Shown one piece after another: positions 7,932 through 27,921 of a stretch of 64,000 bases of DNA (position 1 is its first letter; each line of letters opens with the position of its first letter). The translations under genes and the position numbers were made by a program. Location: contig JAOARX010000013.1 in the NCBI GenBank assembly GCA_025210345.1, positions 143,135 to 207,134 of the forward strand, written 5' to 3'. The notes beneath the pieces are model-generated. The model was not told the DNA's origin. It did no database searches and saw only the letters and a list, made by a program, of their open reading frames with translations. This DNA comes from Pelagimonas sp. (GTDB taxonomy: Bacteria; Pseudomonadota; Alphaproteobacteria; Rhodobacterales; Rhodobacteraceae).

Positions 7932-8552
7932 TCAGACCCCTCCGATTCCGAAATCGCGCAGACCGTCTAGGATGAACTGGATCGAAAGTGCGGCCAAAAG
8001 CATGCCCAAAAGGCGGGACACAACGACGATCCCCGTGCGCCCCAGGGCGCGTTCGATGTGGTCTGCCAAAAGGAAAAGGCACAGCACGATCAAGATCACG
8101 GCCATGAGAACCAGCATGACACTGCTCCATTCGAACAGGGTATCGGTCTGCCCAGTCAGCAAGATCATGGTGGCGATTGCGCCTGGCCCTGAAATCAACG
8201 GCATCGCAAGGGGAAAGACGGATGGGTCGTCGTGGTCTTCTTCGTCGGCCTGATCCTCACGCCGTTTGCTGCGGCGTTCAAACAGCATGTCGAGTGCGGT
8301 CAGGAACAAAAGCGCACCGCCGGCAATGCGAAAGGCGGGCATCGAGATGCCGATAAAGCCCAGCACGGATTCGCCAAACAGCGAAAAGAGCGTCAGCAGT
8401 ACAAAGGCAATCCCACAGGCACGCAGCGCCATCTGGCGTCGCTGGCGCCGTGAAACCCCTTGGGTCAGGGCGATGAAGAGGGGCGTCAGGCCGATGGGAT
8501 CGACAATGACGAAGAGGGTCGCAAAGGCGCTTACGAGGAATGCACTGTCCAT
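7932..8552 (-). CDS. MarC family (UPF0056) integral membrane protein
   Basis: 206 aa with six TM helices. MarC-like N-terminus MDSAFLVSAFATLFVIVDPIG. Confidence 0.8.
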   Translation of the reverse strand: MDSAFLVSAFATLFVIVDPIGLTPLFIALTQGVSRRQRRQMALRACGIAFVLLTLFSLFGESVLGFIGISMPAFRIAGGALLFLTALDMLFERRSKRREDQADEEDHDDPSVFPLAMPLISGPGAIATMILLTGQTDTLFEWSSVMLVLMAVILIVLCLFLLADHIERALGRTGIVVVSRLLGMLLAALSIQFILDGLRDFGIGGV

Positions 8553-8598
8553 GTCGCATGCGTAACGGCTGCGACAGCCCGTCGCAAGAGGGATGCGC

Positions 8599-12965: not shown

Positions 12966-13328
12966 ATGAGTAATGTAGAAAAAGAACAGGTGTTGATTAC
13001 GGCACAATGCGAAGCAGACCGTCTGACAGAGCAACGAGAAGAGATTGCGCAGACATTGGCGGAACTGGTGGCAGATATCCGCACCATCCAGAAGGATTTG
13101 AGACAAGGGGAAGTCGATCGCAAAAGCGAGACCGGCAAGTTGCTGGGAGAGCTGAGGTATTGGCTGCGTGCAGCCCGTGAAACGGAGGCTGAACTTGAAA
13201 TTATCAGACGAAAAGAGGCAGGGATTGGTGACGCCTACGGGATCGATCTCAGAGCCGCAGAGCTTGCGGTCAGGTGCCGCCTGGATAGCCTCCGCGCCTG
13301 CTGCGACACAGGAAGAATTCCTGAATGA
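12966..13328 (+). CDS. GTA g1-like small protein (putative small terminase/DNA-packaging factor)
   Basis: About 120 aa beginning MSNVEKEQ. First gene of the head-tail cluster directly upstream of the large terminase. The six-frame ORF begins earlier at 12903. Confidence 0.55.
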   Translation: MSNVEKEQVLITAQCEADRLTEQREEIAQTLAELVADIRTIQKDLRQGEVDRKSETGKLLGELRYWLRAARETEAELEIIRRKEAGIGDAYGIDLRAAELAVRCRLDSLRACCDTGRIPE

Positions 13329-13347
13329 CCTTGATGAGGGAGCGCTG

Positions 13348-14604
13348 ATGGCGCTCCCCTATTTGTTCGATTTCTGGGCGCATGAGCATCAGATCGCCCC
13401 CGGGGGGGACTGGCGTTCCTGGGTGATCCTGGGGGGGCGTGGCGCAGGCAAAACCCGCGCGGGCGCCGAATGGGTGCGCCAGATGGTCGAAGGTCCCAAG
13501 CCTCTGGATGCGGGGCGGTGCAAACGGATGGCGCTGATTGGGGAAACGTTTGATCAGGCGCGCGAGGTGATGATCTTTGGGGACAGCGGGATTTTGGCCT
13601 GTTCCCCCAAGGACCGCAGTCCCAGCTGGGTATCGACACGGCGCTGTCTGGTTTGGCCCAACGGGGCCGAAGCGATGGTGTTCTCGGCCCATGATCCCGA
13701 AGCCCTGCGCGGGCCGCAGTTTGATGGCGCTTGGGTGGATGAACTGGCCAAGTGGAAGCGCGCGCAGGACGCTTGGGATATGCTTCAATTTGGACTGCGC
13801 CTGGGGGATAGCCCGCGCGTCTGTGTGACCACGACACCGCGCAATGTTGCTGTGCTGAAAGATTTGCTTGATGCGCCTTCGACCGTGCTGACCCGTGCCC
13901 CCACCGAGGCGAACCGGGCACATCTGGCCAAGTCGTTTCTGGATGAGGTGCGCGCACGCTATGCCAATTCGGCACTTGGACAGCAAGAGCTGGACGGGAT
14001 CTTGCTGGATGAGGTCGACGGTTCGTTGTGGTCGCGTGAGATGCTGGATGGGGTGCGTTCAGGTCGGGTGCCGGAGCTTTCGCGGATCGTCGTGGCCGTA
14101 GATCCGCCCGCGGGGGAAGGAAAGGCATCGGATGAATGTGGCATTGTCGTCGCAGGCGCCGTGCTTGACGGGGCGCCTTCGGATTGGCGGGCCTTTGTGC
14201 TGGAGGACGCCACCGTTCAGGGGCTTTCGCCGCTTGGGTGGGCCAATGCCGTCGATGCGGCGGTGCAGCGATGGGGTGCGGACCGGGTCGTGGTCGAAGT
14301 GAACCAGGGGGGCGCGATGGTCGAAAGCGTCTTGCGGCAGGCCAATGCGTTGATGCCGGTGCGCAACGTCCACGCCACACGCGGAAAAATCGCCAGGGCC
14401 GAGCCGGTGTCGGCCCTGTATGAACAGGGGCGCGTAACCCATGGCCAAGGCCTACGCGAGCTCGAAGCACAGATGTGCCTGATGACGCATCGTGGTTTCG
14501 AGGGCGCCGGCAGTCCTGATCGCGTGGACGCATTGGTTTGGGCGCTGACAGATCTGATGCTGGATTGGACCCCCTCCGCCCGACCGGGCGTGCGCAGTTT
14601 ATAG
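13348..14604 (+). CDS. GTA terminase large subunit (g2)
   Basis: MALPYLFDFWAHEHQ...GGRGAGKTRAGAEW Walker A plus C-terminal nuclease region. Typical RcGTA-type terminase N-terminus. Confidence 0.85.
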   Translation: MALPYLFDFWAHEHQIAPGGDWRSWVILGGRGAGKTRAGAEWVRQMVEGPKPLDAGRCKRMALIGETFDQAREVMIFGDSGILACSPKDRSPSWVSTRRCLVWPNGAEAMVFSAHDPEALRGPQFDGAWVDELAKWKRAQDAWDMLQFGLRLGDSPRVCVTTTPRNVAVLKDLLDAPSTVLTRAPTEANRAHLAKSFLDEVRARYANSALGQQELDGILLDEVDGSLWSREMLDGVRSGRVPELSRIVVAVDPPAGEGKASDECGIVVAGAVLDGAPSDWRAFVLEDATVQGLSPLGWANAVDAAVQRWGADRVVVEVNQGGAMVESVLRQANALMPVRNVHATRGKIARAEPVSALYEQGRVTHGQGLRELEAQMCLMTHRGFEGAGSPDRVDALVWALTDLMLDWTPSARPGVRSL

Positions 14605-14629
14605 AGGGGGATCACACGAATGACCAAAA

Positions 14630-14655
14630 GGGTCTGCCAAGTGCAGGCCCTTTTT
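14630..14655 (+). terminator. Terminator-like hairpin with T-run 26 bp after the terminase stop, inside the GTA operon
   Basis: GGGTCTGCCAAGTGCAGGCCC stem-loop followed by TTTTT, then an AT-rich stretch. May act as attenuator or internal terminator. Confidence 0.35.
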
Positions 14656-14829
14656 GTTTGGAACAGCTGTCTGTTTTTAATGTTGTTTGTCAATTGTTTG
14701 GGCGTTGCGGCAACAGCGTGCGCTGCTGTCAACGCTCATAAACCCTGGAAGGTTAGGTTCATTTTCAACGGCGGAATGACCCGCCCCTGACGCGGCGCGA
14801 GCCGCCTGCGAGGAAAAGGAGCGAGACGC

Positions 14830-16032
14830 ATGGTATTGGATTTCTTCCGGCGCGGTGGTGGATCAGACGCAACCCCGACCGGGGCACCCGAGGCTAAGGC
14901 TTCGGCCACGGGTCGCGTGGTGGCGCATATGAGCGCGGGACGCGTGGCCTGGACGCCCCGCGACACGGTTTCGCTGACCAAGCAGGCGTTTTCCGGCAAT
15001 CCGGTTGGATTTCGCGCGGTCAAGCTGATCGCGGAAGCCGCAGCTGCCCTGCCATTGGTCTTGCAGGATGCGGATACGCGCTATGCGGATCATCCGATCC
15101 TCAAGCTGATCACAGCGCCCAACCCGGCGCAGGGCCGCGCTGAATTGTTCGAGGCGCTCTATGGCCAGATCCTGTTGTCTGGCGATGGCTACGTCGAGGC
15201 GGTCGCCGGTGAGGGGGGATTGCCGTTTGAGTTGCACGTTTTGCGCTCGGATCGGATGCGTGTGCTGCCGGGGGCGGATGGCTGGCCCGTGGCTTATGAA
15301 TACGCCGTCGGCAACCGCAAACATCGTTTCAATGTGACCGGGCCGGTTTCGCCCATTTGTCACGTCAAGGCATTCCATCCACTGGATGACCACTACGGCC
15401 TGTCCCCCTTGCAGGCGGCAGCCCAGGCGGTGGATGTACATAATTCGGCCAGCCGCTGGTCGAAGGGGCTATTGGACAATGCCGCCCGACCCTCTGGGGC
15501 GATTGTCTATCAGGGTGCCGAAGGGCACGGCCACCTGAGCCCCGAACAATACGACCGCCTCGTCTCCGAGATGGAGGCCCACCATCAAGGCGCCCGCAAC
15601 GCGGGTCGGCCGATGCTGCTGGAAGGCGGTCTGGATTGGAAACCGATGGGGTTTTCCCCCAGCGATATGGAGTTCCAAAAAACCAAAGAGGCCGCCGCGC
15701 GCGAAATTGCCGTTGCCTTTGGCGTGCCGCCGATGCTGTTGGGCATCCCCGGCGAGGCGACCTATTCCAACTACGCCGAAGCGCACCGGGCGTTTTATCG
15801 CCAGACGGTGCTGCCGCTGGCGTCGAAAGTGTCCACCAGTGTCGGGCGATGGCTGTCGCAGTTTGTCGGGGAACAGGTCGCTTTGAAACCCGATCTGGAT
15901 CAGGTTCCCGCGCTTGCGACGGAACGCGATGCACAGTGGAACCGCGTGGCAGGGGCCGATTTCCTGACCCAGGCGGAAAAGCGTCAGATGCTGGGCCTGC
16001 CGGCTTTGCCAGAGGATTCGTTGGATGAGTGA
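14830..16032 (+). CDS. GTA portal protein (g3), HK97-family portal
   Basis: 400 aa, AAGGAG RBS. Portal-like central region (LLSGDGYVEAV..., NSASRWSKGLLDNAARPSGA...). Confidence 0.9.
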   Translation: MVLDFFRRGGGSDATPTGAPEAKASATGRVVAHMSAGRVAWTPRDTVSLTKQAFSGNPVGFRAVKLIAEAAAALPLVLQDADTRYADHPILKLITAPNPAQGRAELFEALYGQILLSGDGYVEAVAGEGGLPFELHVLRSDRMRVLPGADGWPVAYEYAVGNRKHRFNVTGPVSPICHVKAFHPLDDHYGLSPLQAAAQAVDVHNSASRWSKGLLDNAARPSGAIVYQGAEGHGHLSPEQYDRLVSEMEAHHQGARNAGRPMLLEGGLDWKPMGFSPSDMEFQKTKEAAAREIAVAFGVPPMLLGIPGEATYSNYAEAHRAFYRQTVLPLASKVSTSVGRWLSQFVGEQVALKPDLDQVPALATERDAQWNRVAGADFLTQAEKRQMLGLPALPEDSLDE

Positions 16033-16252
16033 GATGCGCCATAAGGCCGAAGCCTTCGCCTGCGCGCCCGCGCTGCGCCTTGAGGCCCATGAGCGGGTAA
16101 GCAAGCTGCATTACGACCAGTTCAACGAAAAGCTGGTGCGCATGGAGATGCTGATGGAACGCTTGGAAAAACGTTTGTGGTTAACCGTTTACGGAGTGGC
16201 GGGCGTCATTCTTGCCGAAGCATTTCAAAGCCTGATGAAAGCCGCGCCCTAA
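16025..16252 (+). CDS. GTA g3.5-like small protein
   Basis: 75-aa ORF overlapping the portal stop. Positional equivalent of RcGTA g3.5 between portal and protease. Confidence 0.55.
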   Translation: MSEMRHKAEAFACAPALRLEAHERVSKLHYDQFNEKLVRMEMLMERLEKRLWLTVYGVAGVILAEAFQSLMKAAP

Positions 16253-16274
16253 GCGCGTGAAGAAAGGACGAAAC

Positions 16275-16817
16275 ATGGATCTGGAACATAAATTCTGCCG
16301 TTTCGATGCCGAGGTCACTGTGGCCGAAGGGTCAAAGATCGAAGGTTACGCCAGCCTGTTCGGCGCCTGTGATCAGGGTGGCGACGTGGTGGCCAAAGGG
16401 GCCTATGCCCGTTCGCTGAAATCACTGAATGCGGATGGTCGCGCGGTTAAAATGCTGTGGCAGCACGATCCGGCCCAACCGATCGGGATCTGGGACGAGG
16501 TGTGCGAAGACGCAAAGGGCCTGTATGTGAAAGGCCGCTTGCTGGACAGCGTGGAAAAGGGCCGAGAAGCCGCCGCACTGATCGAAGCGGGCGCGATTGA
16601 CGGATTGTCGATCGGCTATCGCACGGTGAAAGCCGCAAAGAATGACAAGGGCCAGCGGCTCTTGAAGGAACTGGAGCTTTGGGAAGTGTCCTTGGTGACT
16701 TTCCCGATGCTTCCCAGTGCGCGTGTCGCCGCCAAGGGGGAGAGCCCCGAGGAAGACGGCATGCGTGAATTGGCGGAGGCCCTTGAGGGCATGCGCCGTA
16801 ACCTGGCGGGCGGCTGA
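16275..16817 (+). CDS. GTA prohead protease (g4), HK97 family
   Basis: MDLEHKFCRFDAEV...KMLWQHD. AAGGAC RBS before the ATG at 16275. The six-frame ORF begins at 16257. Confidence 0.85.
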   Translation: MDLEHKFCRFDAEVTVAEGSKIEGYASLFGACDQGGDVVAKGAYARSLKSLNADGRAVKMLWQHDPAQPIGIWDEVCEDAKGLYVKGRLLDSVEKGREAAALIEAGAIDGLSIGYRTVKAAKNDKGQRLLKELELWEVSLVTFPMLPSARVAAKGESPEEDGMRELAEALEGMRRNLAGG

Positions 16818-16838
16818 CGCGCGCCACTCATAGGGGAA

Positions 16839-18023
16839 ATGTCCATGAGCACAACCGAGACCACGTCTCGGACCGGGGAAGATATGCCTCCGGTCGCCCG
16901 GGTGAGTGCCGCAATGGCGGGACTGATCGGGGACTTCAAGGCCTTGCAGGCCGACCTTCAACAGAAGCTGAACAAACAGGAAGAGCGACTGACTATGCTT
17001 GATCACAAATCTGCCCTCGCGGTGCGCCCCGCACTGTCGACCCACGCCGAGGTCGATGCACCGCACCAAAAGGCGTTTGATGCCTATTTGCGTTCCGGCG
17101 ACGATGATGCGCTGCGCGGTCTGGAAATCGAAGGCAAGGGTATGACCACTGCCGTGAATTCGGATGGTGGCTATCTGGTGGATCCGCAGACCTCGGACAG
17201 CATCCGCGGCCGTCTGGAAGCCAGCGCGTCCGTCCGTGCGATTTCGAATGTCGTCAATGTCGAGGCACAGGCCTTTGATGTCCTGATCGACCAGAACGAT
17301 ACCGTCGCGGGTTGGGCGGCGGAAACCGCTTCGGCGGCAGAGACCGGCACGGCCTCGATCGACCGTATCTCGATCCCGCTTTACGAGCTGAACGCAATGC
17401 CCAAAGTGTCTCAGCGCCTGCTGGACGACAGCGCGTTTGATATCGAAACCTGGCTGGCGACCCGTATCGCTGACAAGTTCATCCGCGCAGAGGCAGCGGC
17501 CTTTGTGAACGGTGACGGTGTCGACAAGCCCCGTGGCTTCCTGAACCACACCCAAGTGGCGGATGACAGCTGGTCCTGGGGCAATCTGGGCTATGTGACC
17601 ACCGGTGTTGCCGATGACATCGACAACGGCGACTCGCTGATCGACCTGGTCTATACCCTGGGTGCGCAGTACCGCGCCAATGGCACCTTTGTGATGAACT
17701 CGAAAACGGCGGGCGCATTGCGCAAGTTGAAGGATGCGGATGGTCGTCACCTGTGGGCCGATGGTTTCTCGGCAACTGAACCCGCGCGCCTGCTGGGCTA
17801 TCCTGTTCTGACCGCAGAAGACATGCCCGACATTGATGCGGATGCGACCCCGATCGCCTTTGGTGATTTCTCGAACGGGTACACCATCGCCGAGCGTCCG
17901 GACATCCGTGTTCTGCGCGACCCCTTCAGCGCCAAACCCCACGTTCTGTTCTATGCGTCCAAACGCGTGGGCGGTGACGTGAGCGATTTTGCGGCCATCA
18001 AGCTGCTGCGCTGCGCGGTCTAA
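16839..18023 (+). CDS. GTA major capsid protein (g5), HK97 fold
   Basis: 394 aa. N-terminal scaffold-like delta domain with a coiled coil, then an HK97-type capsid body. Confidence 0.9.
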   Translation: MSMSTTETTSRTGEDMPPVARVSAAMAGLIGDFKALQADLQQKLNKQEERLTMLDHKSALAVRPALSTHAEVDAPHQKAFDAYLRSGDDDALRGLEIEGKGMTTAVNSDGGYLVDPQTSDSIRGRLEASASVRAISNVVNVEAQAFDVLIDQNDTVAGWAAETASAAETGTASIDRISIPLYELNAMPKVSQRLLDDSAFDIETWLATRIADKFIRAEAAAFVNGDGVDKPRGFLNHTQVADDSWSWGNLGYVTTGVADDIDNGDSLIDLVYTLGAQYRANGTFVMNSKTAGALRKLKDADGRHLWADGFSATEPARLLGYPVLTAEDMPDIDADATPIAFGDFSNGYTIAERPDIRVLRDPFSAKPHVLFYASKRVGGDVSDFAAIKLLRCAV

Positions 18024-18175
18024 ACGCTGCCAGAGATGAAGGGTGGGGGCATCTCCACTCTTCCCAGGGCGCGCGCAGGCTCGTTGTCCAGCTGTCCCCT
18101 CCGCCAAAGGCAGCGTAGGCGGCGCGCGTCCGCCAGATCGCTGGGGATGTTGGTTCAGGATTTCGGAGAAGAAAC

Positions 18176-18769
18176 ATGATGTTGGTGGAAGAAACACAGG
18201 TGCCCGAGGCGGCCCTTCCGGTGGCGGAGCTGAAACAGCATCTGCGTTTGGGGAGCGGGTTTGCAGAAGATGACGTGCAGGATCCGGTTCTGAAGTCTTT
18301 TCTGCGCGCAGCATATGCCGCAATCGAGGCGCGCACCGGCAAAGCGCTGATCCAACGCAGCTTTGTCGCAACTCTGGACGGGTGGCGCGAGATCACCGGT
18401 CAGGTGCTGCCGGTCTCTCCGGTGCAATCGATCACGGATATTTCGATTGTGGATCAATTGGGTATCGGTGCAGAGCTGGCAAGTTCGAGCTATCGGTTGA
18501 AACAGGACATGTTCCAGCCCGAGGTCAAGCCGATCGGTGGTTGCCTTCCTGGTGTTCCAAGTGGCGGCAGCGTCGAGATCCGTTTCCAGGCGGGCTATGG
18601 CCCGGCGTTTGATGACATCCCGGCAGATCTGCGCCAGGCGGTGCTGTTGCTGGCGTCGCACTACTATGAATACCGCGATGAAACCGCGTTGGGTCAGGGC
18701 TGTATGCCCTTTGGCGTGACCAGCCTGATCGCGCGTTATCGTCCCGTCCGCCTGGGGCTGGGCGCATGA
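18176..18769 (+). CDS. GTA head-tail adaptor (g6), gp6-like
   Basis: 197 aa in the conserved position after the capsid gene. RBS GGAGAAG. Confidence 0.75.
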   Translation: MMLVEETQVPEAALPVAELKQHLRLGSGFAEDDVQDPVLKSFLRAAYAAIEARTGKALIQRSFVATLDGWREITGQVLPVSPVQSITDISIVDQLGIGAELASSSYRLKQDMFQPEVKPIGGCLPGVPSGGSVEIRFQAGYGPAFDDIPADLRQAVLLLASHYYEYRDETALGQGCMPFGVTSLIARYRPVRLGLGA

Positions 18770-19104
18770 GCGCCCCGCGTTTGAACCGCCCCCTGACCCT
18801 GGAAGCACCGACGCGCTCAGCTGATGGCGCGGGTGGCTATGCCGAGACATGGACCGAACTGGGCGTTTTGTGGGCCGAACTTGATGAGCGGACGGGGCGA
18901 CTGGACAAGGGCGAAGGCGCGACCTTCTCCGACATTGCCTTTCGCATCACGGTGCGCGCCGCCCCGGTCGGGGCTTCGAACCGCCCTGTTGCCGGTCAGC
19001 GTTTTCGCATGAACGCGAGGCTGTTTCGCATCGATGCAGTCAGTGAAACCGGTGCAAACGGGTTCTTCCTGATCTGCTCCTGTCACGAGGAGGTCGCGGT
19101 ATGA
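18766..19104 (+). CDS. GTA head closure/stopper protein (g7)
   Basis: 112 aa. ATGA overlap with g6. Head-tail joining family. Confidence 0.75.
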   Translation: MSAPRLNRPLTLEAPTRSADGAGGYAETWTELGVLWAELDERTGRLDKGEGATFSDIAFRITVRAAPVGASNRPVAGQRFRMNARLFRIDAVSETGANGFFLICSCHEEVAV

Positions 19105-19508
19105 GCTATGCGGTTTCAAGCGCTTTGCAGGCGGCGATCTATGCGCAACTGCAAGCGGATGGTGCGCTTTCCCTATTGGTGGGTGACAGCATCTTTGATG
19201 CACCACCTGTCGGCACCTTGCCCCCATTGTACGTGTCGCTGGGCCCCGAGGCGGTCCGCGAGGCCGGAACCGGCGGGTGCGATGGCGCCTGGCACAGTTT
19301 CACAGTTTCGGTCGTGACAGAAAATGCCGGTTTCCAGACCGCAAAAGACGCGGCCGTTGCCGTGAGTGATGCCTTGCATGATGCGGATCTGACGCTGAGC
19401 CGGGGGCATCTTGTCGGGCTGTGGTTTTCCAAGGCCCGGGCCTATCGCGAAACAGACGATTTGCGCCGTGTCGACCTGACATTCCGCGCACGCGTTGAAG
19501 ACGAATAA
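19101..19508 (+). CDS. GTA tail terminator (g8), DUF3168-like
   Basis: 135 aa. ATGA overlap with g7. Confidence 0.7.
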   Translation: MSYAVSSALQAAIYAQLQADGALSLLVGDSIFDAPPVGTLPPLYVSLGPEAVREAGTGGCDGAWHSFTVSVVTENAGFQTAKDAAVAVSDALHDADLTLSRGHLVGLWFSKARAYRETDDLRRVDLTFRARVEDE

Positions 19509-19530
19509 CCTATTCCAAAGGAGTGAGATC

Positions 19531-19953
19531 ATGAGTGCTCAAAAAGGTAAGGATCTGTTGGTCAAGATTGATTTGACCGGGGACGGCCAGTTCGAAACGC
19601 TTGCCGGGCTGCGGGCAACGCGCATCAGTTTCAACGCTGAACAGGTCGATGTGACCACGCTGGACAGCGCGGGTGGTTGGCGAGAGTTGCTGGCAGGTGC
19701 CGGTGTCAAATCGGCCAGCATCAGCGGTTCGGGCGTGTTCAAGGATGCGGGAACCGATGAACGGGCCCGTCAGATCTTCTTTGACGGAGAAACCCCTGAT
19801 TTCCAGGTGATCATCCCCGAGTTCGGCACGGTCGAGGGCCGCTTTCAGGTGGGCAGCATTGAATATGCGGGCACCTATAATGGCGAAGCGACCTATGAGC
19901 TGTCGCTGGCGTCAGCGGGCGAGCTGACCTTTATCGCTGTGCCGGTAGTCTGA
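19531..19953 (+). CDS. GTA major tail (tube) protein (g9), TP901-1 type
   Basis: MSAQKGKDLLVKIDLTGDG... with AAAGGAG RBS. 140 aa. Confidence 0.8.
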   Translation: MSAQKGKDLLVKIDLTGDGQFETLAGLRATRISFNAEQVDVTTLDSAGGWRELLAGAGVKSASISGSGVFKDAGTDERARQIFFDGETPDFQVIIPEFGTVEGRFQVGSIEYAGTYNGEATYELSLASAGELTFIAVPVV

Positions 19954-20285
19954 TGGGCAATCCTTGGCGGGGGGATGTGACGCTGATCATGAATGATGAG
20001 CGCCATGTAATGCGCCTGACCTTGGGCGCATTGGCAGAATTGGAAGCAGGGCTGCAAAGTGGCTCGCTTGTGGATCTGGTTCAGCGTTTCGAGGGGGGAG
20101 CATTTTCCACTCGGGATGTTCTGTCCCTGATCGTCGCGGGTCTTCGCGGCGGCGGCTGGCAAGGGGATGCCCGCGATCTGATGCACGCGGACATCGAAGG
20201 CGGACCAGTCGCCGCAGCCAGGGCCGCAGCGGCGCTGCTGGTCCGCGCCTTCGCGGTGCCCGAGGGCGATCATGGCGACGCGTGA
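19953..20285 (+). CDS. GTA tail assembly chaperone (g10)
   Basis: 110 aa. ATGA overlap with g9. GTA-family protein N-terminus MGNPWRGDVTLIMNDERHVMRLTLGALAELE. Confidence 0.7.
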   Translation: MGNPWRGDVTLIMNDERHVMRLTLGALAELEAGLQSGSLVDLVQRFEGGAFSTRDVLSLIVAGLRGGGWQGDARDLMHADIEGGPVAAARAAAALLVRAFAVPEGDHGDA

Positions 20286-21093
20286 CGGCAATATTGACTG
20301 GCCTGTCCTGATGCGGGCCGGGATGCGCGGGCTGGGCCTTAAACCCTGGGAGTTCTGGGATCTTACACCGGCTGAGCTGCAGATCCTGCTGGGACACTCT
20401 GGGGGGCTATCATCCGCCATCAAGCGCGACCATGTACAAAACGGGACGCGTTTGATCGAAATATGGGAGCCCATTCGCGCCCAGGTTCAACCAGGAGATA
20501 CGGTCCGCCTGCTTGCCGGGTGCGACAAGCGTTTTGAAACCTGTCGGCTGAAATTCCTGAACGGTGCGAATTTTCAGGGCTTTCCGGATCTTCCCGATGA
20601 GGATTGGGTCAGTGTGGCGCCGGGGCTGTCATCGAACTACCTCGGGCGGGAGCCGCAGATGACACCGATTGTCACCTCCGCAAGAGGATGGATAGGCACG
20701 CCCTATCTGCATCAGTGTTCGCGCAAGGGGGCCGGGTGTGATTGCCTTGGGCTATTGCGTGGCGTCTGGCGTGAGGTGATCGGACCAGAGCCCGAGGTGG
20801 TCCCTGCCTACAGTCGGGACTGGTCGGAAACAGGTCCTGATGAGCTGCTCTGGGCGCGGTTATCCGACTATCTGATCCCCAAGCCCATCGACGACACCGA
20901 AACGGGTGATGTGGTGTTGTTTCGCATGCGGTCGGGGGCAGTGGCCAAACATATCGGCATTCAGACCCAAGTGGGGTCTGAGCCTGCCTTCGTGCACGCC
21001 TATTTTCGGCATGGTGTTTGCGAAACTTCGTTCAATCGCGCCTGGGCCCGCCGCACGGTGGCCCGGTTTGCCTTTCCACAGGAGATTTTCTGA
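20272..21093 (+). CDS. Chimeric ORF: g10.1-like N-terminus (~42 aa), then the C-terminal ~50 aa of the DUF2163/BR0599 hub protein (g13), then the complete NlpC/P60 phage cell-wall peptidase (g14); tape measure and distal-tail genes absent
   Basis: Residues 1-42 (MATRDGNIDWPVLMRAGMRGLGLKPWEFWDLTPAELQILLG) look like a g10.1/rcc01693-family protein. Residues ~60-110 (LLAGCDKRFETCRLKFLNGANFQGFPDLPDEDW) are the conserved extreme C-terminus of BR0599/DUF2163. From MTPIVTSARGWIGTPYLHQCSRKGAGCDCLGL onward (internal ATG at 20668) is an NlpC/P60 peptidase with Cys and His catalytic residues. There are no stops between the three parts. Confidence 0.65.
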   Translation: MATRDGNIDWPVLMRAGMRGLGLKPWEFWDLTPAELQILLGHSGGLSSAIKRDHVQNGTRLIEIWEPIRAQVQPGDTVRLLAGCDKRFETCRLKFLNGANFQGFPDLPDEDWVSVAPGLSSNYLGREPQMTPIVTSARGWIGTPYLHQCSRKGAGCDCLGLLRGVWREVIGPEPEVVPAYSRDWSETGPDELLWARLSDYLIPKPIDDTETGDVVLFRMRSGAVAKHIGIQTQVGSEPAFVHAYFRHGVCETSFNRAWARRTVARFAFPQEIF

Positions 21094-22150
21094 TGGCGAC
21101 AATCCTTCTTTCAGCCGCAGGCGCGGCACTTGGCAATACCGTGGGCGGTACAGCGCTGGGCATGTCCATGGGGACAGTTGGCCGTTTCCTGAGGTGTCCC
21201 TGAGTGCGTTTGCGCCCGCGGTGCCGGTGGTGTCGACCTTTATGGATTTGCCTTTGATGACCGGCAGCGAAGACCCGATCGCGCCGCATGTGGCGGTCTC
21301 TTCCGATCCGTGGCCCGGGAGTGTCGCCGTTTATGATGCGGCGCAAGACGACGGGTATGGGCTGAACTCCGTGCTCTATGAGCGGGCCGTCATCGGCGTC
21401 ACCGAGACAGATCTGAGCGCGGCGCAGGTAGGCCTGATGGATCGCGGCGCGCCGCTTGAGGTCAACCTGTCGTCCGGGACCCTTGAGTCGGTCAGCGAAG
21501 AGCAGCTGCTGGCAGGGGCGAACCTGATGGCCATCGGAGATGGGAGCCCCGGAAACTGGGAATTGTTCCAGTTTCAACAGGCCACATTGCTTGACGGCAA
21601 TCGCTGGCAGCTTTCACAGCGGCTGCGCGGTCAGGCCGGGACCGATGGCGCTATGCCTGCGGTTTGGCCGGCCGGGTCCAAGGTGGTGCTGATGAATGGC
21701 GCGCCCCAGCAGATTGATTTGACCTCTGCCAACCGGCGCGTTGCACGCCACTATCGCATCGGACCGGGGGATCGCCCCTACAGTGACCCAACCTATTCGC
21801 ATGCGATACATGCTTTTGATGGGAACGGGTTGCGCCCCTATCGTCCCGCGCATGTCCGCCTGGTGGATGTCGGTGGCGATCTACAAGTCAGCTGGATACG
21901 TCGAACACGCTTGGACGGGGACAGTTGGGAGTTGTATGAAGTCCCCCTGTCCGAAGACAGCGAGAGCTATCTTGTCCGTGTGAAAAATGGGGCGCAGGTG
22001 CTGCGAGAAGAGCAGGTTTCCTCGCCGAACTGGACCTATGTTGCGGCAGATCAGGCCGCCGACGGCTATGGTTTGGGATGCACTGTGGAAGTGGCTCAAA
22101 TCTCGGCGCAATATGGCCCGGGGCTCTTCGCTGAGGCAGAGGTGTTCTGA
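21093..22150 (+). pseudogene. Remnant of GTA host-specificity/tail-fibre protein g15: 36-codon N-terminus, frame break near 21185-21200, then ~315 C-terminal codons in another frame
   Basis: ATGA overlap with the preceding ORF. The Gly-rich N-terminus MATILLSAAGAALGNTVGGTALG is typical of g15 and hits TGA at 21201. A different frame continues to 22150. Full-length homologues are ~1300 aa, so only ~1.06 kb survives here. Confidence 0.6.
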
Positions 22151-22278
22151 GCTTAACCGGGTGTTGAATTCCGGGTGTTAAATTCTAGGTGCGCACGGAT
22201 GAGTTTCCGGGCGCACCCTATTGTGATTTCCTCTCGTGTGACTATTTGCTAAGCTCCATCCAGCCAAGGAGGAAGTCG

Positions 22279-23088
22279 ATGGCACAGGAACGCGCAAAAC
22301 TGGCCCAGATTGACCCGGTTTGGGCCCGCATCAAGGCCGAGGCCGAAGATGCTGTGAAAACAGAACCTCTGTTGGGGGGGATGGTGCACTATTCCATTTT
22401 GCACCACCCTTCGCTTGAGCGGGCGCTGAGCTATCGGATCTCGTTGAAACTTGCGAATGGCGAAATGTCGGAACAGATCCTGCGCGAGATTTGCGACGAA
22501 GCCTATGGTGCCGATCCCGAGCTGGCGGTCGCCGCTCGCGCCGATATTGTGGCCACCCACGACCGTGATCCCGCCTGCCATCGTTTTCTCCAGCCGTTGC
22601 TGTTTTTCAAAGGGTTTCAGGCGGTTCAGGCGCATCGCATTGGACATTGGCTCTGGTTGCAGGGGCGCAAAGACTTGGCGAGCTTTTTTCAAATGCGCTC
22701 ATCCGAGATGTTCGGGATCGATATTCACCCTGCGGCACGTGTCGGGCGCGGCATCATGATTGACCACGCGCATTCCATTGTTATTGGTGAAACTGCGGTT
22801 GTCGGCGACAATGTATCGATGCTGCATTCTGTGACCTTGGGTGGAACCGGCAAAGAGGATGAAGACCGCCACCCCAAGATCGGTGATGGCGTGTTGATTG
22901 GTGCTGGCGCCAAGGTGTTGGGCAACATTCGTGTTGGAAAATGCTCACGCATTGCAGCTGGATCGGTTGTCCTGAAAGAGGTGCCGCCCTGTTCCACGGT
23001 CGCCGGTGTTCCGGCGCGCATCGTTGGGGAAGCTGGCTGTGACCAACCCTCAGTGGAAATGGATCAGTTGCTGGGTTCATCGAAATAG
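22279..23088 (+). CDS. cysE: Serine O-acetyltransferase
   Basis: AGGAGG RBS. Hexapeptide-repeat C-terminus (GIDIHPAARVGRGIMIDHA...GAKVLGNIRVG). Conserved downstream neighbour of Rhodobacterales GTA clusters. Confidence 0.9.
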   Translation: MAQERAKLAQIDPVWARIKAEAEDAVKTEPLLGGMVHYSILHHPSLERALSYRISLKLANGEMSEQILREICDEAYGADPELAVAARADIVATHDRDPACHRFLQPLLFFKGFQAVQAHRIGHWLWLQGRKDLASFFQMRSSEMFGIDIHPAARVGRGIMIDHAHSIVIGETAVVGDNVSMLHSVTLGGTGKEDEDRHPKIGDGVLIGAGAKVLGNIRVGKCSRIAAGSVVLKEVPPCSTVAGVPARIVGEAGCDQPSVEMDQLLGSSK

Positions 23089-23117
23089 CACGGGCGTTCC
23101 GCACCGGTATTGGGGGC

Positions 23118-24866
23118 TCAGGCGGCGCGGGAGCTGTCATCCAAGACAGATTTTTCAGATGTTTCATTAACGGTGAAAACCTCTAGCAAGGCGCTCATGC
23201 GTGAGAGCTTGCTTGTCATGTCGATCGTCGATTGGTTGGCTTTCTCGGTCACCTGCGCATTTGTTTCTGCGTCGCGATCAAGGGCGGAAATTGAACTGTT
23301 GGTTTGGGAAATCAAATCGGATTGCAGATCTGCATCCTGCGCGATTCTGTTGATCTGATCAGAAACCGTGTCGACCTGTGTGACAATTTCACCAAGTCGG
23401 GCCCCCGCGCTGCGCACATGAGTTGCGCCGCTTTGGACACTTTCTTCTGACGCCGCAATCAGTTGGCGGCTCTCTTGGGCGGCAGCTGCGGCGCTGTTTG
23501 CCAGGCCTCTCACTTCCGTTGCGACCACGGCAAACCCTTTGCCAGCCGGTCCCGCGCGCGCGGCTTCCACCCCCGCATTCAAAGCGAGCAGGCTGGTTTG
23601 AAAGGCGATGTCATCGATCAGCTCTAGGACCTGTATGATCTGTGATGAGCGCTCTTCCAATTCATCGATGGCCTCGATGGCCTGCCGCATGGTTGGCAGG
23701 CTCTCGCTTGCATGGGACTTGGCGCTGGCCGCGGCGGTGTCGGCGGCCTTGGTGCGTTGCCCCGTAGACAGCAGCGTATCGGTCATCTTGGTCACAGAGG
23801 CTGAGGTTTGCTGCAGGCGTGCAGATGTCTGTCGGCTGGCTTGTGATATATCGGCAACCACGCGCGCAAGCACTCCAGACGTGTTCTGAATGGTGCGCCC
23901 AAAGCTGTTCAACTCAATAAAGGCGTGTTCGATCTGCTCGACAGCGGCGTTGAAATCGCGGCGCAGCACGTCATATTTTTCCGAAAACGGTCCTTCGATT
24001 CGCGTGGTCAGATCACAGTTCTGCAGTCGGCTCAGCGCGTCGCGCAGCTCAGTGATCGCTTTGTTTTGCGCAAGCTGGTCCTCCTTCGTGACAAGACGCT
24101 CTTGTGCCGCTGTTGTCAGATTTTGTCTGAGCACTTCGAGCCTCGCACAAAATGCCCCGATCTGGTCGCTGCGATGCTGCATCGGGATCGGCGCGTCGTA
24201 GTCTTCTGCCTGCAACCTCTCCAGCGCCGCTTCCAGTTGCTGCACAACACGTCCAAAGCTGCGGCTCAGCAAAAGCGACATCAACGCGATCACGCTGAGA
24301 AAGACCAGGGCCGCAACAGCAAGACCGATCAGTTGTTGCCTGTTGGTCGACGCCAGGGTGGATTGGGCGCTCCAGACAGAGACCAATGCGCCGACGACCT
24401 CGCCCTTTTTGTTTTGGACCGGCAAGATCAGGGTCAAACCCCCCGTTTGTGCGCGCGCCGCGCCGGTTTCAAGCACCTCCGCGATCAGCGCATCATCGGG
24501 TGCCAGGCTCGCTTCGCTGCTTTGTTCGTTGGTGATTTCCACAAGCGTGCGTCCAGAAATGTCCACCACGCGCCCACCGACAAAACTGTCTTCTGATCTC
24601 TGGGCGAACTCTTCGAGACGTTTTTGGATGCTGCCCGAAAACCCCAGTTTGATCGGCTGAGACAGCGATGCGGCGGTGGTTTGTGCCAATTCCCGATGCA
24701 ACCGGTTCAGTTGTTCCAGAACCACGTCGTTGATCTGACGATCAGCGTTCCACGTAAGCGTGCCCGCCACAAGCAGCGTCCCCGCCGCAAAGAGCACCAT
24801 AAGCTTGGATTCGATCCCGTGGATCATACGAAGAACAGCAGTTTGAATTCGGGTTTTGAAAATCAT
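23118..24866 (-). CDS. Methyl-accepting chemotaxis protein
   Basis: 582 aa. N-terminal TM, periplasmic sensor, second TM, HAMP, then MCP signalling domain with the conserved hairpin tip (QTSLLALNAGVEAARAG). Confidence 0.85.
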   Translation of the reverse strand: MIFKTRIQTAVLRMIHGIESKLMVLFAAGTLLVAGTLTWNADRQINDVVLEQLNRLHRELAQTTAASLSQPIKLGFSGSIQKRLEEFAQRSEDSFVGGRVVDISGRTLVEITNEQSSEASLAPDDALIAEVLETGAARAQTGGLTLILPVQNKKGEVVGALVSVWSAQSTLASTNRQQLIGLAVAALVFLSVIALMSLLLSRSFGRVVQQLEAALERLQAEDYDAPIPMQHRSDQIGAFCARLEVLRQNLTTAAQERLVTKEDQLAQNKAITELRDALSRLQNCDLTTRIEGPFSEKYDVLRRDFNAAVEQIEHAFIELNSFGRTIQNTSGVLARVVADISQASRQTSARLQQTSASVTKMTDTLLSTGQRTKAADTAAASAKSHASESLPTMRQAIEAIDELEERSSQIIQVLELIDDIAFQTSLLALNAGVEAARAGPAGKGFAVVATEVRGLANSAAAAAQESRQLIAASEESVQSGATHVRSAGARLGEIVTQVDTVSDQINRIAQDADLQSDLISQTNSSISALDRDAETNAQVTEKANQSTIDMTSKLSRMSALLEVFTVNETSEKSVLDDSSRAA

Positions 24867-24989
24867 GGCGTGGCCTCAATCGACACGTATGCACAATGAG
24901 TCCCCGAAAAAAACTAGCAAAGCCTTTCTCTCTGAGCCTTTGCACAGAAGAAACAAAGACAATTTGCCTAGATCTGTCCCGGATGCGGG

Positions 24990-26255
24990 TTAAATCACCA
25001 AGGCCCCGGGGGCTTCGAGCAAGCGGACCAGATGCGCCAGGAACGCCGCGCCATCCGCGCCATCCAATACACGATGATCCAGTCCCAGTGTTAGCGCCAT
25101 CATCGGGGCGGATCTTACCGAGCCGTCAGATGTGACCATGGGCTTTTGCACGATGGCGCCCACCGCCAGAACAGCACTTTGGGGGGCGGTGATAATGGCA
25201 TCAAAGCTTTCGACCCCATGTGGCCCCAGGTTTGAAAGCGTCAGGCTGCTGCGTTCTGCTTCACTTGAGATCGGTGACCCGGAGTCCACCTGCGCGCGCA
25301 GGGCACGCATCTCTTGCGAAATTTGCGTGATCGGTTTGTGGTCTACGTCTTGCACCACCGGAGACACAACGCTGTCCCGCGTGGCGATGGCGACGCCAAC
25401 ATCACATGTGCCGCGGTCAAGGATATGATCGTCGGCCCAGATGTGGCGGGCCTTGGGCACCTGCTGTAGCGTCAGACCGCAGGCCTTGAGGATGAAATCG
25501 TTGATCGTCAGGTGCTCTCCTCTTTCGGCAAGCACGCTGTTGATCTCAGATCGCAAGGCCACCAGGCGCGTGGCATCAAGGCTGCGATGCAAATAGATAT
25601 GCGGGATCTCGTTGCGCGATGTGCTCATGCGCGTGGCAATGCTGCGTCGCATCGCTGTCAGGGGGATATGCGTGGTGCCCGCCGAAGAAACCGCAGGGGC
25701 CTTCACTGCGGGGGCTGGCACCTGTGAATCAGGGGCGGGCATGGTCGGTGGTATGGGGGTGCTTTGGCCGCGTGTTTCAGTGCCCTCGATCAAATCCGCA
25801 ACCACGATACGCCCGCCGGGCCCCGATCCGGTTATCCCGGTCAGCTCCATTCCGCGTTCCCGGGCAATACGCCGTGCCGCCGGTGAGGCCATAACGCGGT
25901 GCGCGCGTTCTTCTGTGGCCGCGAAGCCCCCCGAGGGAGCCGCCGCCGTGTCGTCGCTGCTGGGCGCGCTTGGTTGCTCACGGCAAGCCAAGACATCGTC
26001 CGCCGTGGTTTCGTCCCCCGTCGCCAGCAGGGCAATGGGCGCGTCCACCTTGATCTGGGCCTCTCCTGCTGCAACCAGGATCTGGGTCACGCGGCCGGCC
26101 ATCGGGGCTTCGAAGTCCAAGGCGGCTTTGTCGGTCTCAATCTCGGCAATGACATCGCCCTGCGCCACCTGCGCGCCTTCCTGTATCAGCCACTTTCTGA
26201 GCCGCCCTTCCTCCATCGTCGGCGAGAGCGCGGGCATACGGATTTCGACCGGCAT
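24990..26255 (-). CDS. pdhC: Pyruvate dehydrogenase E2 (dihydrolipoamide acetyltransferase)
   Basis: Lipoyl domain (IETDKA), E3-binding domain, catalytic domain DHRVLDGA. Confidence 0.9.
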   Translation of the reverse strand: MPVEIRMPALSPTMEEGRLRKWLIQEGAQVAQGDVIAEIETDKAALDFEAPMAGRVTQILVAAGEAQIKVDAPIALLATGDETTADDVLACREQPSAPSSDDTAAAPSGGFAATEERAHRVMASPAARRIARERGMELTGITGSGPGGRIVVADLIEGTETRGQSTPIPPTMPAPDSQVPAPAVKAPAVSSAGTTHIPLTAMRRSIATRMSTSRNEIPHIYLHRSLDATRLVALRSEINSVLAERGEHLTINDFILKACGLTLQQVPKARHIWADDHILDRGTCDVGVAIATRDSVVSPVVQDVDHKPITQISQEMRALRAQVDSGSPISSEAERSSLTLSNLGPHGVESFDAIITAPQSAVLAVGAIVQKPMVTSDGSVRSAPMMALTLGLDHRVLDGADGAAFLAHLVRLLEAPGALVI

Positions 26256-26258
26256 GGC

Positions 26259-26498
26259 TTAGCCCTCGTCCAGCAAGAGCATCTGATCAAACGGGCGTGC
26301 GGGCGGGCGGCCCGTGCGCAGATCCTCAAGGGCTTGCCCGAGCTCCTCCTGGAGCGCCGACGCCCACTCGGTCGCGCGTGCTTCGCTGGCTTCCCCCATT
26401 TCCTGTGTCAAAAGCGCATTCGGCACAAGCGCCACGACCCGCCCCAATCCGATGCGCAGGCCTTCGCTGCTCAGTCCAAGAATCTCGATCTGTGCCAT
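26259..26498 (-). CDS. Small hypothetical protein (~79 aa) inside the pdh operon between pdhB and pdhC
   Basis: ATG at 26498 with GGAGAG RBS. Its stop lies 3 nt from the pdhC start. The six-frame ORF extends to 26564 across a tandem repeat and is probably over-called. No recognisable domain. Confidence 0.4.
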   Translation of the reverse strand: MAQIEILGLSSEGLRIGLGRVVALVPNALLTQEMGEASEARATEWASALQEELGQALEDLRTGRPPARPFDQMLLLDEG

Positions 26499-26508
26499 AT
26501 TCGGCTCT

Positions 26509-26571
26509 CCAAATAGTCGGTCCAATGACCGGGCCAAACAGACCGGGTCAAATAGTCGGTCCAAAGACCGG
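26509..26571. repeat. Tandem direct repeat, two ~24-bp copies (CAAATAGTCGGTCCAA[T/A]GACCGGG) with a 15-bp spacer
   Basis: Fills the 76-bp gap between the pdhB stop and the small ORF start. One mismatch between copies. Confidence 0.6.
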
Positions 26572-26574
26572 GGC

Positions 26575-27921
26575 TTAGGGGGTGTCGCGATAGGTTACTT
26601 GGCGTGCGGCCGCGACCACGTCGTTGGCACTGACCAAGGCCATTTTTTCCAGATTTGCGGCATAGGGCATGGGCACATCCTTGCCCGTCACATTGATCAC
26701 CGGCGCATCCAGCCAGTCAAAGGCCTCTTGCATCAGGACCGCGCTGATGTGGTTGCCGATCGACCCCATGGGGAACCCCTCTTCGATGGTCACGCAGCGA
26801 TGGGTTTTGCGGACCGAAGCGATGATCGTTTCCGTATCAAGGGGGCGCAGGGTGCGCAGGTCGATCACCTCGGCGCTGATGCCCTGTTGCGCCAGCAGGT
26901 CGGCGGCCGCCAGCGTATGATCCATGCCAATGCCAAAACTGACCAAAGTCACATCCGTGCCCGCGCGTACGATTTTGGCCTTGCCAAGCGGGATCGTGAA
27001 ATCGGGCAATGCGGGAACATCCGAGCTGTGCCCATACAGGATTTCATTTTCGAGGAAAATCACCGGGTTCGGATCGCGAATGGCGGATTTCAACAATCCT
27101 TTCGCATCGGCAGCGCTATGGGGCATCACCACTTTGAGGCCCGGAATATGCGCATACCACGCAGCGTAGTCCTGGGAATGCTGTGCTCCGACGCGTGCCG
27201 CTGCGCCATTGGGGCCGCGAAACACAATCGGACAGGACAGGCGCCCACCGGAAATGTAATGTGTCTTGGCTGCGGAATTCACGATCTGATCCATGGCCTG
27301 CATGGCAAAGTTGAACGTCATGAATTCGACCACTGGCTTGAGCCCGGCAAAGGCCGCCCCGACACCGATCCCTGCGAACCCGTGTTCCGTGATCGGCGTG
27401 TCGACCACGCGCTTGCTGCCAAATTCGTCCCACAATCCTTGCGTGATTTTGTAAACACCTTGGTACTCGGCGATTTCCTCACCCATCAAGAAAACATCGC
27501 TGTCTGCGCGCATCTCTTCGGCCAGCGCATCGCGCAGCGCTTCGCGCACGGTTTGGGTCTTGGTACGCGTGCCCTCGGGCCACTCTTGTGGTGCCGCCGG
27601 GGCAGGGGGCGTGGCAGAGGGGGCGGCTTGGGCTGGCGCGGATGCGGGCGAAACCTTGCTGGGGGGCGGCGGCGTTTCACCGGGTTCCAAAAGCAAAGCG
27701 ATCGGGGTGTTGATCTTGATGCCGGCGCTGCCCGCCGGGGTCAGGATCTGCCCCAGGATGCCATCTTCGGGGGCCTCGAACTCAAGGGTGGCCTTGTCGG
27801 TTTCGATCTCGGCGATCACGTCGCCCACACGCAGGTCATCGCCTTCGCGCACCAGCCATTTGGACAGCGTGCCTTCTTCCATCGTCGGGGAAAGGGTCGG
27901 CATAAGCAGGGGTTTGGTCAT
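26575..27921 (-). CDS. pdhB: Pyruvate dehydrogenase E1 beta subunit with N-terminal lipoyl domain
   Basis: 448 aa. [17 protein letters not shown] lipoyl domain, Ala/Pro linker, transketolase-like E1 beta. Confidence 0.9.

Follow-up and report, generated by a model that had tools for sequence, protein, structure and literature searches.

Throughout the Rhodobacterales, gene clusters of the type that encodes the gene transfer agent (GTA) of Rhodobacter capsulatus (RcGTA) are conserved, and selection has been argued to maintain them. In RcGTA the megatron gene g15 (Rcc01698; PDB 6TBA, 6TEH) is the last gene of the head-tail cluster, located after g14 and before cysE, and its product comprises, among others, a peripheral (residues 230-744), a central (745-984) and a fibre-binding domain (985-1304) (PMC7296036). 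The tail fibre is a separate protein which binds to the C-terminal domain of the megatron (Bardy et al. 2020, PMC7296036). The name "host-specificity/tail-fibre gene", under which an initial annotation of the DNA studied here had listed g15, is hence misplaced for this multidomain protein of the baseplate (PMC7296036). Some of the large RcGTA-like clusters, defined by at least nine RcGTA homologues in one region, are known to hold pseudogenised homologues which do not form a normal open reading frame (ORF) (Shakya, Soucy and Zhaxybayeva 2017, PMC5721377). Here we describe an RcGTA-type head-tail cluster on the + strand of a stretch of 64,000 nucleotides (nt) from a metagenome-assembled genome (MAG) of Pelagimonas sp. 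(contig JAOARX010000013.1), henceforth called the window. With g2, g3, g3.5, g4-g10 and g14 present and remnants of g10.1, g13 and g15 it corresponds to a large cluster with pseudogenes. The last gene of this cluster very probably persists as a mere remnant left by a deletion of ~2.9 kb, accompanied by a second deletion of ~2 kb and by a frame change. Compared with the clusters considered by Shakya et al., the lesions are here resolved to their junctions, these being two deletions and one frame change which all lie in the tail-tip module, and the host is a Pelagimonas-like MAG for which no relative closer than 64% identity was found.

The remnant of g15 and its immediate neighbours are arranged as follows:

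20659..21093, + strand, g14, NlpC/P60 tail peptidase of full length (profile 1-134/134) with its own ATG at 20659
21093..21203, + strand, N-terminal part of g15, 36 sense codons and a TGA at 21201-21203
21194..22150, + strand, C-terminal part of g15 in a frame other than that of the N-terminal part, 318 codons and a TGA at 22148-22150
22279..23088, + strand, cysE (serine O-acetyltransferase), the conserved right-hand neighbour, which starts 128 nt after the g15 stop

The succession of g14, g15 and cysE, with g15 as the last gene of the cluster and its start overlapping the g14 stop, is found here in the same way as in the related loci L001, L118 and L120. The overlap, previously given as ATGA, actually reads TGATG and consists of a single shared base (21093). 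Similarly, cysE is indeed the next gene, yet the g15 stop does not lie just before it, as had been stated, but is separated from the cysE start at 22279 by the gap mentioned above.

The N-terminal part, opened by ATG 21093-21095, translates to MATILLSAAGAALGNTVGGTALGMSMGTVGRFLRCP and is preceded by the sequence AGGAGA (21080-21085), a good ribosome-binding site 7 nt 5' of the ATG. It had been read as the Gly-rich N-terminus of g15 running into a TGA after 36 codons at 21201, and this is borne out by its homology to residues 1-33 of the full-length g15 proteins of relatives (64% identity; tblastn E 3e-6 and 1.7e-8), with which it is also syntenic due to its position directly 3' of g14. Taken alone, the profile match to positions 1-25 of the NCBIfam model NF048004 (GTA_megatron) is weak (E 0.0099, 13.6 bits). 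Of the iris/penetration domain (RcGTA residues 1-46) a homologous counterpart exists in residues 1 to ~34, with the Gly/Ala-rich helix; helix 1, the loop and part of the disordered stretch are retained while helix 2 (residues 38-46) is lost. The last two to three codons (LRCP) represent sequence of the C-terminal part read out of frame.

The C-terminal part corresponds to the complete fibre-binding domain (RcGTA residues ~986-1304). Read from 21206 onwards, it matches positions 987-1298/1299 of NF048004 (E 1.3e-105, 354.5 bits), residues 987-1299 of the RcGTA megatron chain 6tba_8A (E 1.8e-107; PDB 6TBA/6TEH) and the full Pfam model PF23666 (Rcc01698_C; 1-98/98, E 4.6e-37). The frame 21206-22147 thus aligns to megatron rather than to an unrelated family, an alternative which had been raised initially. 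In tblastn, 21200-22132 aligns to residues 1002-1312 of a relative of 1318 amino acids (aa). The frame had correctly been described as open for ~315 codons down to the stop and comprises 318 codons when counted from 21194. At NCBI it is called from GTG 21194 as a hypothetical protein of 318 aa (MCT4557418.1, Pelagimonas sp. MAG), whereas the callings of JGI and Logan comprise 309 aa and 297 aa, respectively. Judged by their sequences, both segments are g15 (megatron) and belong to no other family. Yet, while g15 of the relatives consists of 1297-1318 aa in one frame, no single ORF of ~1300 aa reaching the whole-protein cut-off of NF048004 (800 bits) is present in the window, the two parts scoring 13.6 and 354.5 bits in different frames. 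Unlike the megatron of RcGTA, to which it is otherwise similar in its C-terminal domain and, in part, at its N-terminus, the product lacks residues ~35-985, and with 354 bits against a cut-off of 800 we regard the gene as a presumably non-functional remnant.

Alignment of both parts to nine full-length g15 proteins places the junction at 21189-21193. Homology of the N-terminal frame ends at the Phe encoded by 21186-21188 (..GRF) or possibly at the next Leu (21189-21191), while that of the C-terminal frame starts at 21194 with VSLSAFAPAVP (compare LVSLKPFVPPVP in L015). The C-terminal frame is offset by -1 relative to the N-terminal one, with both frames overlapping at 21191-21203, and this offset requires the loss of 3n+1 bases; in total, ~965 codons plus 1 nt (~2.9 kb) are absent. 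The earlier estimate that about 2.9 kb encoding the central domains is missing, and that this is not a multiple of three, is therefore correct. The frame break, too, is real but does not constitute a lesion of its own, since it coincides with the junction: as both limits of homology fall within 21189-21193, one deletion of 3n+1 bases explains the missing domains along with the change of frame, rendering a separate frameshift unnecessary. According to this scenario, a single internal deletion of ~2.9 kb would have joined g15 codon ~34 to the codon of RcGTA residue ~986, leaving behind a micro-ORF of 36 codons and an orphaned, open ORF for the fibre-binding domain. With residues ~35-985 deleted, the adhesin-like, the peripheral (TIM-barrel) and the central domains are gone, only the last domain being left in full and the first one to about three quarters. 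In agreement with this, neither part shows a Pfam match to PF13547 (GTA_TIM) or PF13550 (Phage-tail_3). A tblastn search of the 64 kb with two full-length g15 proteins found only residues 1-33 and 1002-1312, which confirms these as the remaining ones, and no second g15; the intact copy whose presence elsewhere had been suggested for checking is, accordingly, absent as far as the window extends. No long repeat flanks the junction. Only an exact match of 12 nt, GGGGACAGTTGG (21170 and 21917), and a duplication of CCTGAG (21188/21199) were detected, neither of which is convincing.

Upstream of g14 the cluster is damaged a second time:

20272..20658, + strand, chimeric remnant in which g10.1 residues ~4-45 are joined in frame to residues ~205-290 of the hub gene g13
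20634..20658, + strand, 3' end of the g13 remnant, where the frame is changed by one base (three-frame translation against 28 relatives)
20272-21093, + strand, single ORF of 273 codons, a g10.1'-'g13-g14 mosaic which gene callers report as one protein

Within this ORF, residues ~9-49 represent the tail assembly chaperone g10.1 (TIGR02216 positions 3-42/58), residues ~44-123 exclusively the C-terminal region of the hub g13 (TIGR02218 positions 186-261/266) and residues 133-269 the complete g14 peptidase (TIGR02219 positions 1-134/134). The g10.1/g13 junction, near 20400, is in frame, and both parents read G-x-x-G-(L/A)-S-x-A at this site. When the 64 kb were searched by tblastn with g11 and g12 of L001, nothing was found, and a search with g13 returned residues 195-290 only. 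We propose that a second, in-frame deletion of ~2 kb has taken g11 (tape measure), g12 (distal tail) and most of g13, namely its N-terminal two thirds (~200 residues), and that a third lesion consists in a small shift of frame where the g13 remnant ends. The canonical g13 terminus ..TSGGSRR, whose stop overlaps the g14 ATG, is now found in another frame, and the remnant reads through into g14. Located between the two deletions, g14 itself is intact. Consequently, the initial statement that loss of g11-g13 adds to that of g15, which was taken to remove essentially the whole baseplate, applies to g11, g12 and about two thirds of g13, whereas the peptidase g14 survives.

Tails of the siphovirus type assemble on an initiator formed by tape measure, distal tail protein and hub. 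In RcGTA the megatron's central domain and the hub's attachment domain dock the baseplate on the distal tail protein, and loss of g14 alone leads to empty heads without tails (PMC7296036). Given the loss of g11 and g12 as well as of the hub's attachment domain and the megatron core, we infer that the locus cannot make tailed, DNA-delivering particles and would yield heads at most. For annotation this implies that the 318-aa "hypothetical protein" as well as the chimeric ORF of 273 aa are remnants of GTA genes and that the MAG is not to be considered GTA-competent.

In related genomes g15 is usually complete. A single g15 of ~1300 aa occurs in 29 of 34 species-representative genomes found with the C-terminal part as query. 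Among the metagenome loci ascertained via g14 (n=41), 37 give one full-length g15 match, two show frame breaks and two merely differ at the N-terminus, while an internal deletion is observed in none; g11-g13 are present in 38 of 39 such loci. The distance of the C-terminal part to its relatives, divided by the mutual distance of these relatives, amounts to 1.07; the corresponding values are 1.04-1.46 in the intact GTA genes and 1.0-2.3 in housekeeping genes of the flanks, this being a weak test as the nearest relatives are ~60% identical and were selected with the C-terminal part itself as query. The ratios of the retained GTA genes are no higher than those of the housekeeping genes and hence give no signal of relaxed selection. 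With 0.61-0.62, the GC content at the remnant is like that of the rest of the cluster and shows no drift. Because the retained genes are all open, the C-terminal part is not excessively diverged and its GC content has not drifted, the loss looks recent. The locus apparently represents ordinary gene decay of recent date, in line with the pseudogenised RcGTA homologues already known from large clusters. A lineage caught shortly after losing nothing but the tail-tip module, with its head genes still intact, would provide a small, clean data point on the loss of GTAs.

Several points weigh against such a recent deletion. The right breakpoint coincides precisely with a domain boundary, a place that random deletions would rarely hit, and the choice of relatives by means of the C-terminal part slightly favours a low divergence. 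Closer relatives were sought for a reconstruction of the ancestral state, the best reaching 64% identity in a genome scan with the C-terminal part, 64% in a metagenome scan with g14 and 62% in the protein database, its own cluster aside. As the best relative thus shares only 64% amino-acid identity, the ancestral sequence, the exact length of the deletion and any microhomology are beyond reconstruction. Both available assemblies stem from short-read data of probably a single sample, and a minority allele with intact g15 may hence exist. Furthermore, copies of g11-g13 and g15 that complement in trans may be located in the genome outside the 64 kb covered by our search.

The strongest competing explanation, which is compatible with the deletion as such, regards the C-terminal part as a live, stand-alone gene for the fibre-binding domain that is translated by termination-reinitiation and kept by selection. 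If the operon is still transcribed, the good ribosome-binding site of the micro-ORF probably drives translation of this ORF and its putative pore-lining helix, and one may speculate that ribosomes stopping at 21201-21203 reinitiate at GTG 21194, 7 nt upstream of that stop, to produce the fibre-binding domain. However, none of the candidate starts is preceded by a proper ribosome-binding site, the GAGG in front of the GTG abutting it with zero spacing. The ORF of 318 codons is intact, matches the domain over its full length and shows no excess divergence, but a recent deletion predicts an intact ORF equally well. The right breakpoint coincides with the boundary between central and fibre-binding domain (RcGTA residue 985). 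In Fertoebacter nigrum, g15 is independently reduced to residues ~984-1316, which persist as an open ORF of 334 aa after a truncated capsid gene, in several genomes two ORFs share g15 between them with a break around the same boundary (about residues 962-1005), and purifying selection apparently maintains the C-terminal half of g15 in a family of terminase::megatron fusions (see below). Yet this retention of the C-terminal end is biased by ascertainment, as all of these examples except L063 were found with the C-terminal part as query, and the domain has no known role other than anchoring the tail fibre to a baseplate, which this locus can no longer build (PMC7296036). We therefore consider selection for a stand-alone gene rather improbable. 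If it were true, C-terminal modules of the megatron would have a cellular role that outlasts the gene transfer agent.

Still less credit can be given to the assumption that g15 is in reality intact and that metagenome assembly or binning has produced the deletion and the frame break by collapse, chimera formation or consensus error. The sequence does originate from a MAG, the two deletions are at most 1 kb apart and no isolate genome of the lineage was found. Against this stands a contig of 6965 bp obtained by an independent assembler (Logan L035, run SRR21418663, recorded in two samples), which is 100% identical, without gaps, to 19722-26686 and covers both deletion junctions and the frame break; an assembler artefact is accordingly unlikely. 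This contig partly serves the purpose of the resequencing that had been recommended to verify the frameshift, with the reservation that it, too, is built from short reads, the sample probably being identical. In addition, the junctions contain no repeat long enough to mislead a k-mer assembler, and homology is colinear and clean on either side of each of them. No single-base correction restores an ORF of ~1300 aa, which disposes of a sequencing error as put forward initially. Comparable natural deletions are, moreover, present in the isolates F. nigrum, Sulfitobacter sp. AS92, Defluviimonas sp. D31 and Roseovarius faecimaris. Finally, that a programmed frameshift or a single-base error joins both parts to a mini-megatron of ~352 aa, composed of pore-forming helix and fibre-binding domain, might be imagined in view of the -1 offset and the overlap of the frames at 21191-21203 but is next to inconceivable, as no slippery heptamer X XXY YYZ is present in 21180-21203, for which reason programmed frameshifting was rejected, the two assemblies agree on every base, and the central docking domain is absent with the tail-tip partners deleted too.

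Deletions and breaks comparable to the large internal deletion which we favour for the window were encountered in further genomes. In F. nigrum (L117:2159-4064, L116:7103-9005), residues ~9-305 of the capsid protein g5 are joined out of frame to g15 residues ~984-1316, followed by cysE, in front of which the open ORF for the fibre-binding domain is located. This remnant resembles that of the window in being an independent large deletion with its right end at g15 residue ~984 and in leaving the fibre-binding-domain ORF next to cysE. It differs in its left end, which lies in the capsid gene, so that everything from the C-terminal part of g5 through g14 is lost there. The NCBI assembly of F. nigrum additionally carries a transposase of the IS1595 family between g2 and g3 (L116:2646-3608). 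Sulfitobacter sp. AS92 (L017:7524-10915) retains a complete g2, after which come g15 residues 804-1317 and cysE, the intervening genes being deleted. The megatron of Sulfitobacter undariae is split into 970 + 338 aa (L118:5083-7995 + 8001-9017), a split seen on five contigs, and that of one MAG into 1007 + 311 aa (L120:5003-8026 + 8001-8936). Two further clusters show breaks near residue 962 (L063) and near residues 894-911 (L014); all these clusters with a split megatron are otherwise complete. Three of these splits hence occur at about residues 962-1005, around the boundary between central and fibre-binding domain. The split megatron could be a tolerated two-gene form or result from frameshift errors.

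A different outcome of deletion, widespread among the Rhodobacterales, is represented by in-frame fusions of the terminase g2 (residues ~26-193, through Walker B, ..PQFDAAWVDE) to the megatron g15 from ..xGCAAxDKG (residue ~657) to its end. They were first seen in Defluviimonas sp. D31 (L021:8519-10951) and in a Sulfitobacter MAG (L029:8045-10516), whose fusions are mutually 57% identical and share the same junction. Most of the best 120 database matches combine PF03237, PF13547, PF13550 and PF23666 in 755-887 aa, mostly 780-855 aa, and the carriers include complete Roseovarius genomes, Ruegeria, Thioclava, Aliiroseovarius, Celeribacter, Shimia and others. The junction codon is the same in all 23 sequences fetched, and all 25 sequences examined have the same junction. 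In Roseovarius faecimaris (L121:8001-10460, CP034348.1) the fusion occupies the canonical locus between an ORF of 109 aa, possibly g1, and cysE. A neighbour-joining tree built from the g15 part shows polyphyly of the fusions, which are interspersed by genus with the intact proteins of 1300 aa; the fusion of D31, for example, shares 90% identity with the intact D. salinarum megatron and only 75% with the next fusion. Within genera the fusions display 62-90% identity at conserved length, which argues for maintenance of the ORF. Judged by these sequence comparisons, the fusion appears to be a product of GTA loss which recurs and is under selection. The two junction sites lie ~11.2-11.4 kb apart in nine intact clusters and share ~3-7 matching bases, too few for microhomology to be the cause of the recurrent junction. 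A search of the literature collection used here for a terminase::megatron fusion returned no description. Like the remnant of the window, the fusion is the product of a deletion inside the head-tail cluster which keeps the 3' part of g15 next to cysE. Unlike it, the fusion is in frame, arises by a deletion of ~11 kb at one recurrent junction and forms a conserved ORF, whereas the window has an intact g2, an out-of-frame deletion spanning g15 residues ~35-985, and keeps g3-g10 and g14. The junction of ...AAWVDE to xGCAAxDKG is absent from the window, which consequently does not belong to this family. The fusions suggest that GTAs are lost along a path which can be taken repeatedly and from which a conserved gene remains.

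The intact part of the cluster in the window extends from g2 to g10 (13168..20285). Compared with a complete RcGTA-type head-tail cluster, g2-g10 are intact while g11, g12 and a full-length g13 are missing. The individual genes are:

13168-14604, + strand, g2 terminase, open, 478 aa, reading ...AWVDELAKWKRAQ, without terminase/megatron junction
14830-16032, + strand, g3 portal, open, full-length profile match
16025-16252, + strand, g3.5, open
16257-16817, + strand, g4 protease, open, full-length profile match
16839-18023, + strand, g5 capsid, open, full-length profile match
18176-18769, + strand, g6, open, full-length profile match
18766-19104, + strand, g7, open, >85% of its length aligned to relatives
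19101-19508, + strand, g8, open, >85% of its length aligned to relatives
ending at 19953, + strand, g9 tail tube, open, full-length profile match
19953-20285, + strand, g10, open, full-length profile match

An NCBIfam search with g2 gave no match; the protein aligns to g2 of L017 (residues 31-477) and of L116 (residues 74-478). A scan of 20900-22400 for promoters and terminators yielded no promoter-like site and terminator-like matches at chance level only, and an Rfam scan of the whole 64-kb window produced zero matches. Within the 128-nt spacer between g15 and cysE, a tandem direct repeat of 14 nt, CCGGGTGTTGAATT / CCGGGTGTTAAATT, is located at 22157-22184. It may be a candidate regulator-binding site for cysE. 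Its spacing does not fit the CtrA box, TTAA-N7-TTAA. The same spacer (22151-22278) contains no g16 (DUF7742) gene, g16 and DUF7742 being regarded here, as an assumption of ours, as one family; a DUF7742 gene is found in this position at L117:4083-4430 and L118:9014-9373 but not in L120. In R. capsulatus, g16 is located directly 3' of g15 and cotranscribed with the GTA cluster (PMC9552610). Beyond cysE, a gene for a methyl-accepting chemotaxis protein (23118-24866, - strand) is placed between cysE and the pyruvate dehydrogenase genes. Of the latter, the E2 gene (24990-26255, - strand) shows ~43% identity to the E2 of relatives, which are ~80% identical among themselves, while the adjoining E1 genes share ~70% identity with their counterparts in relatives. 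Either divergence of a paralogue or a replacement may account for this E2 gene.

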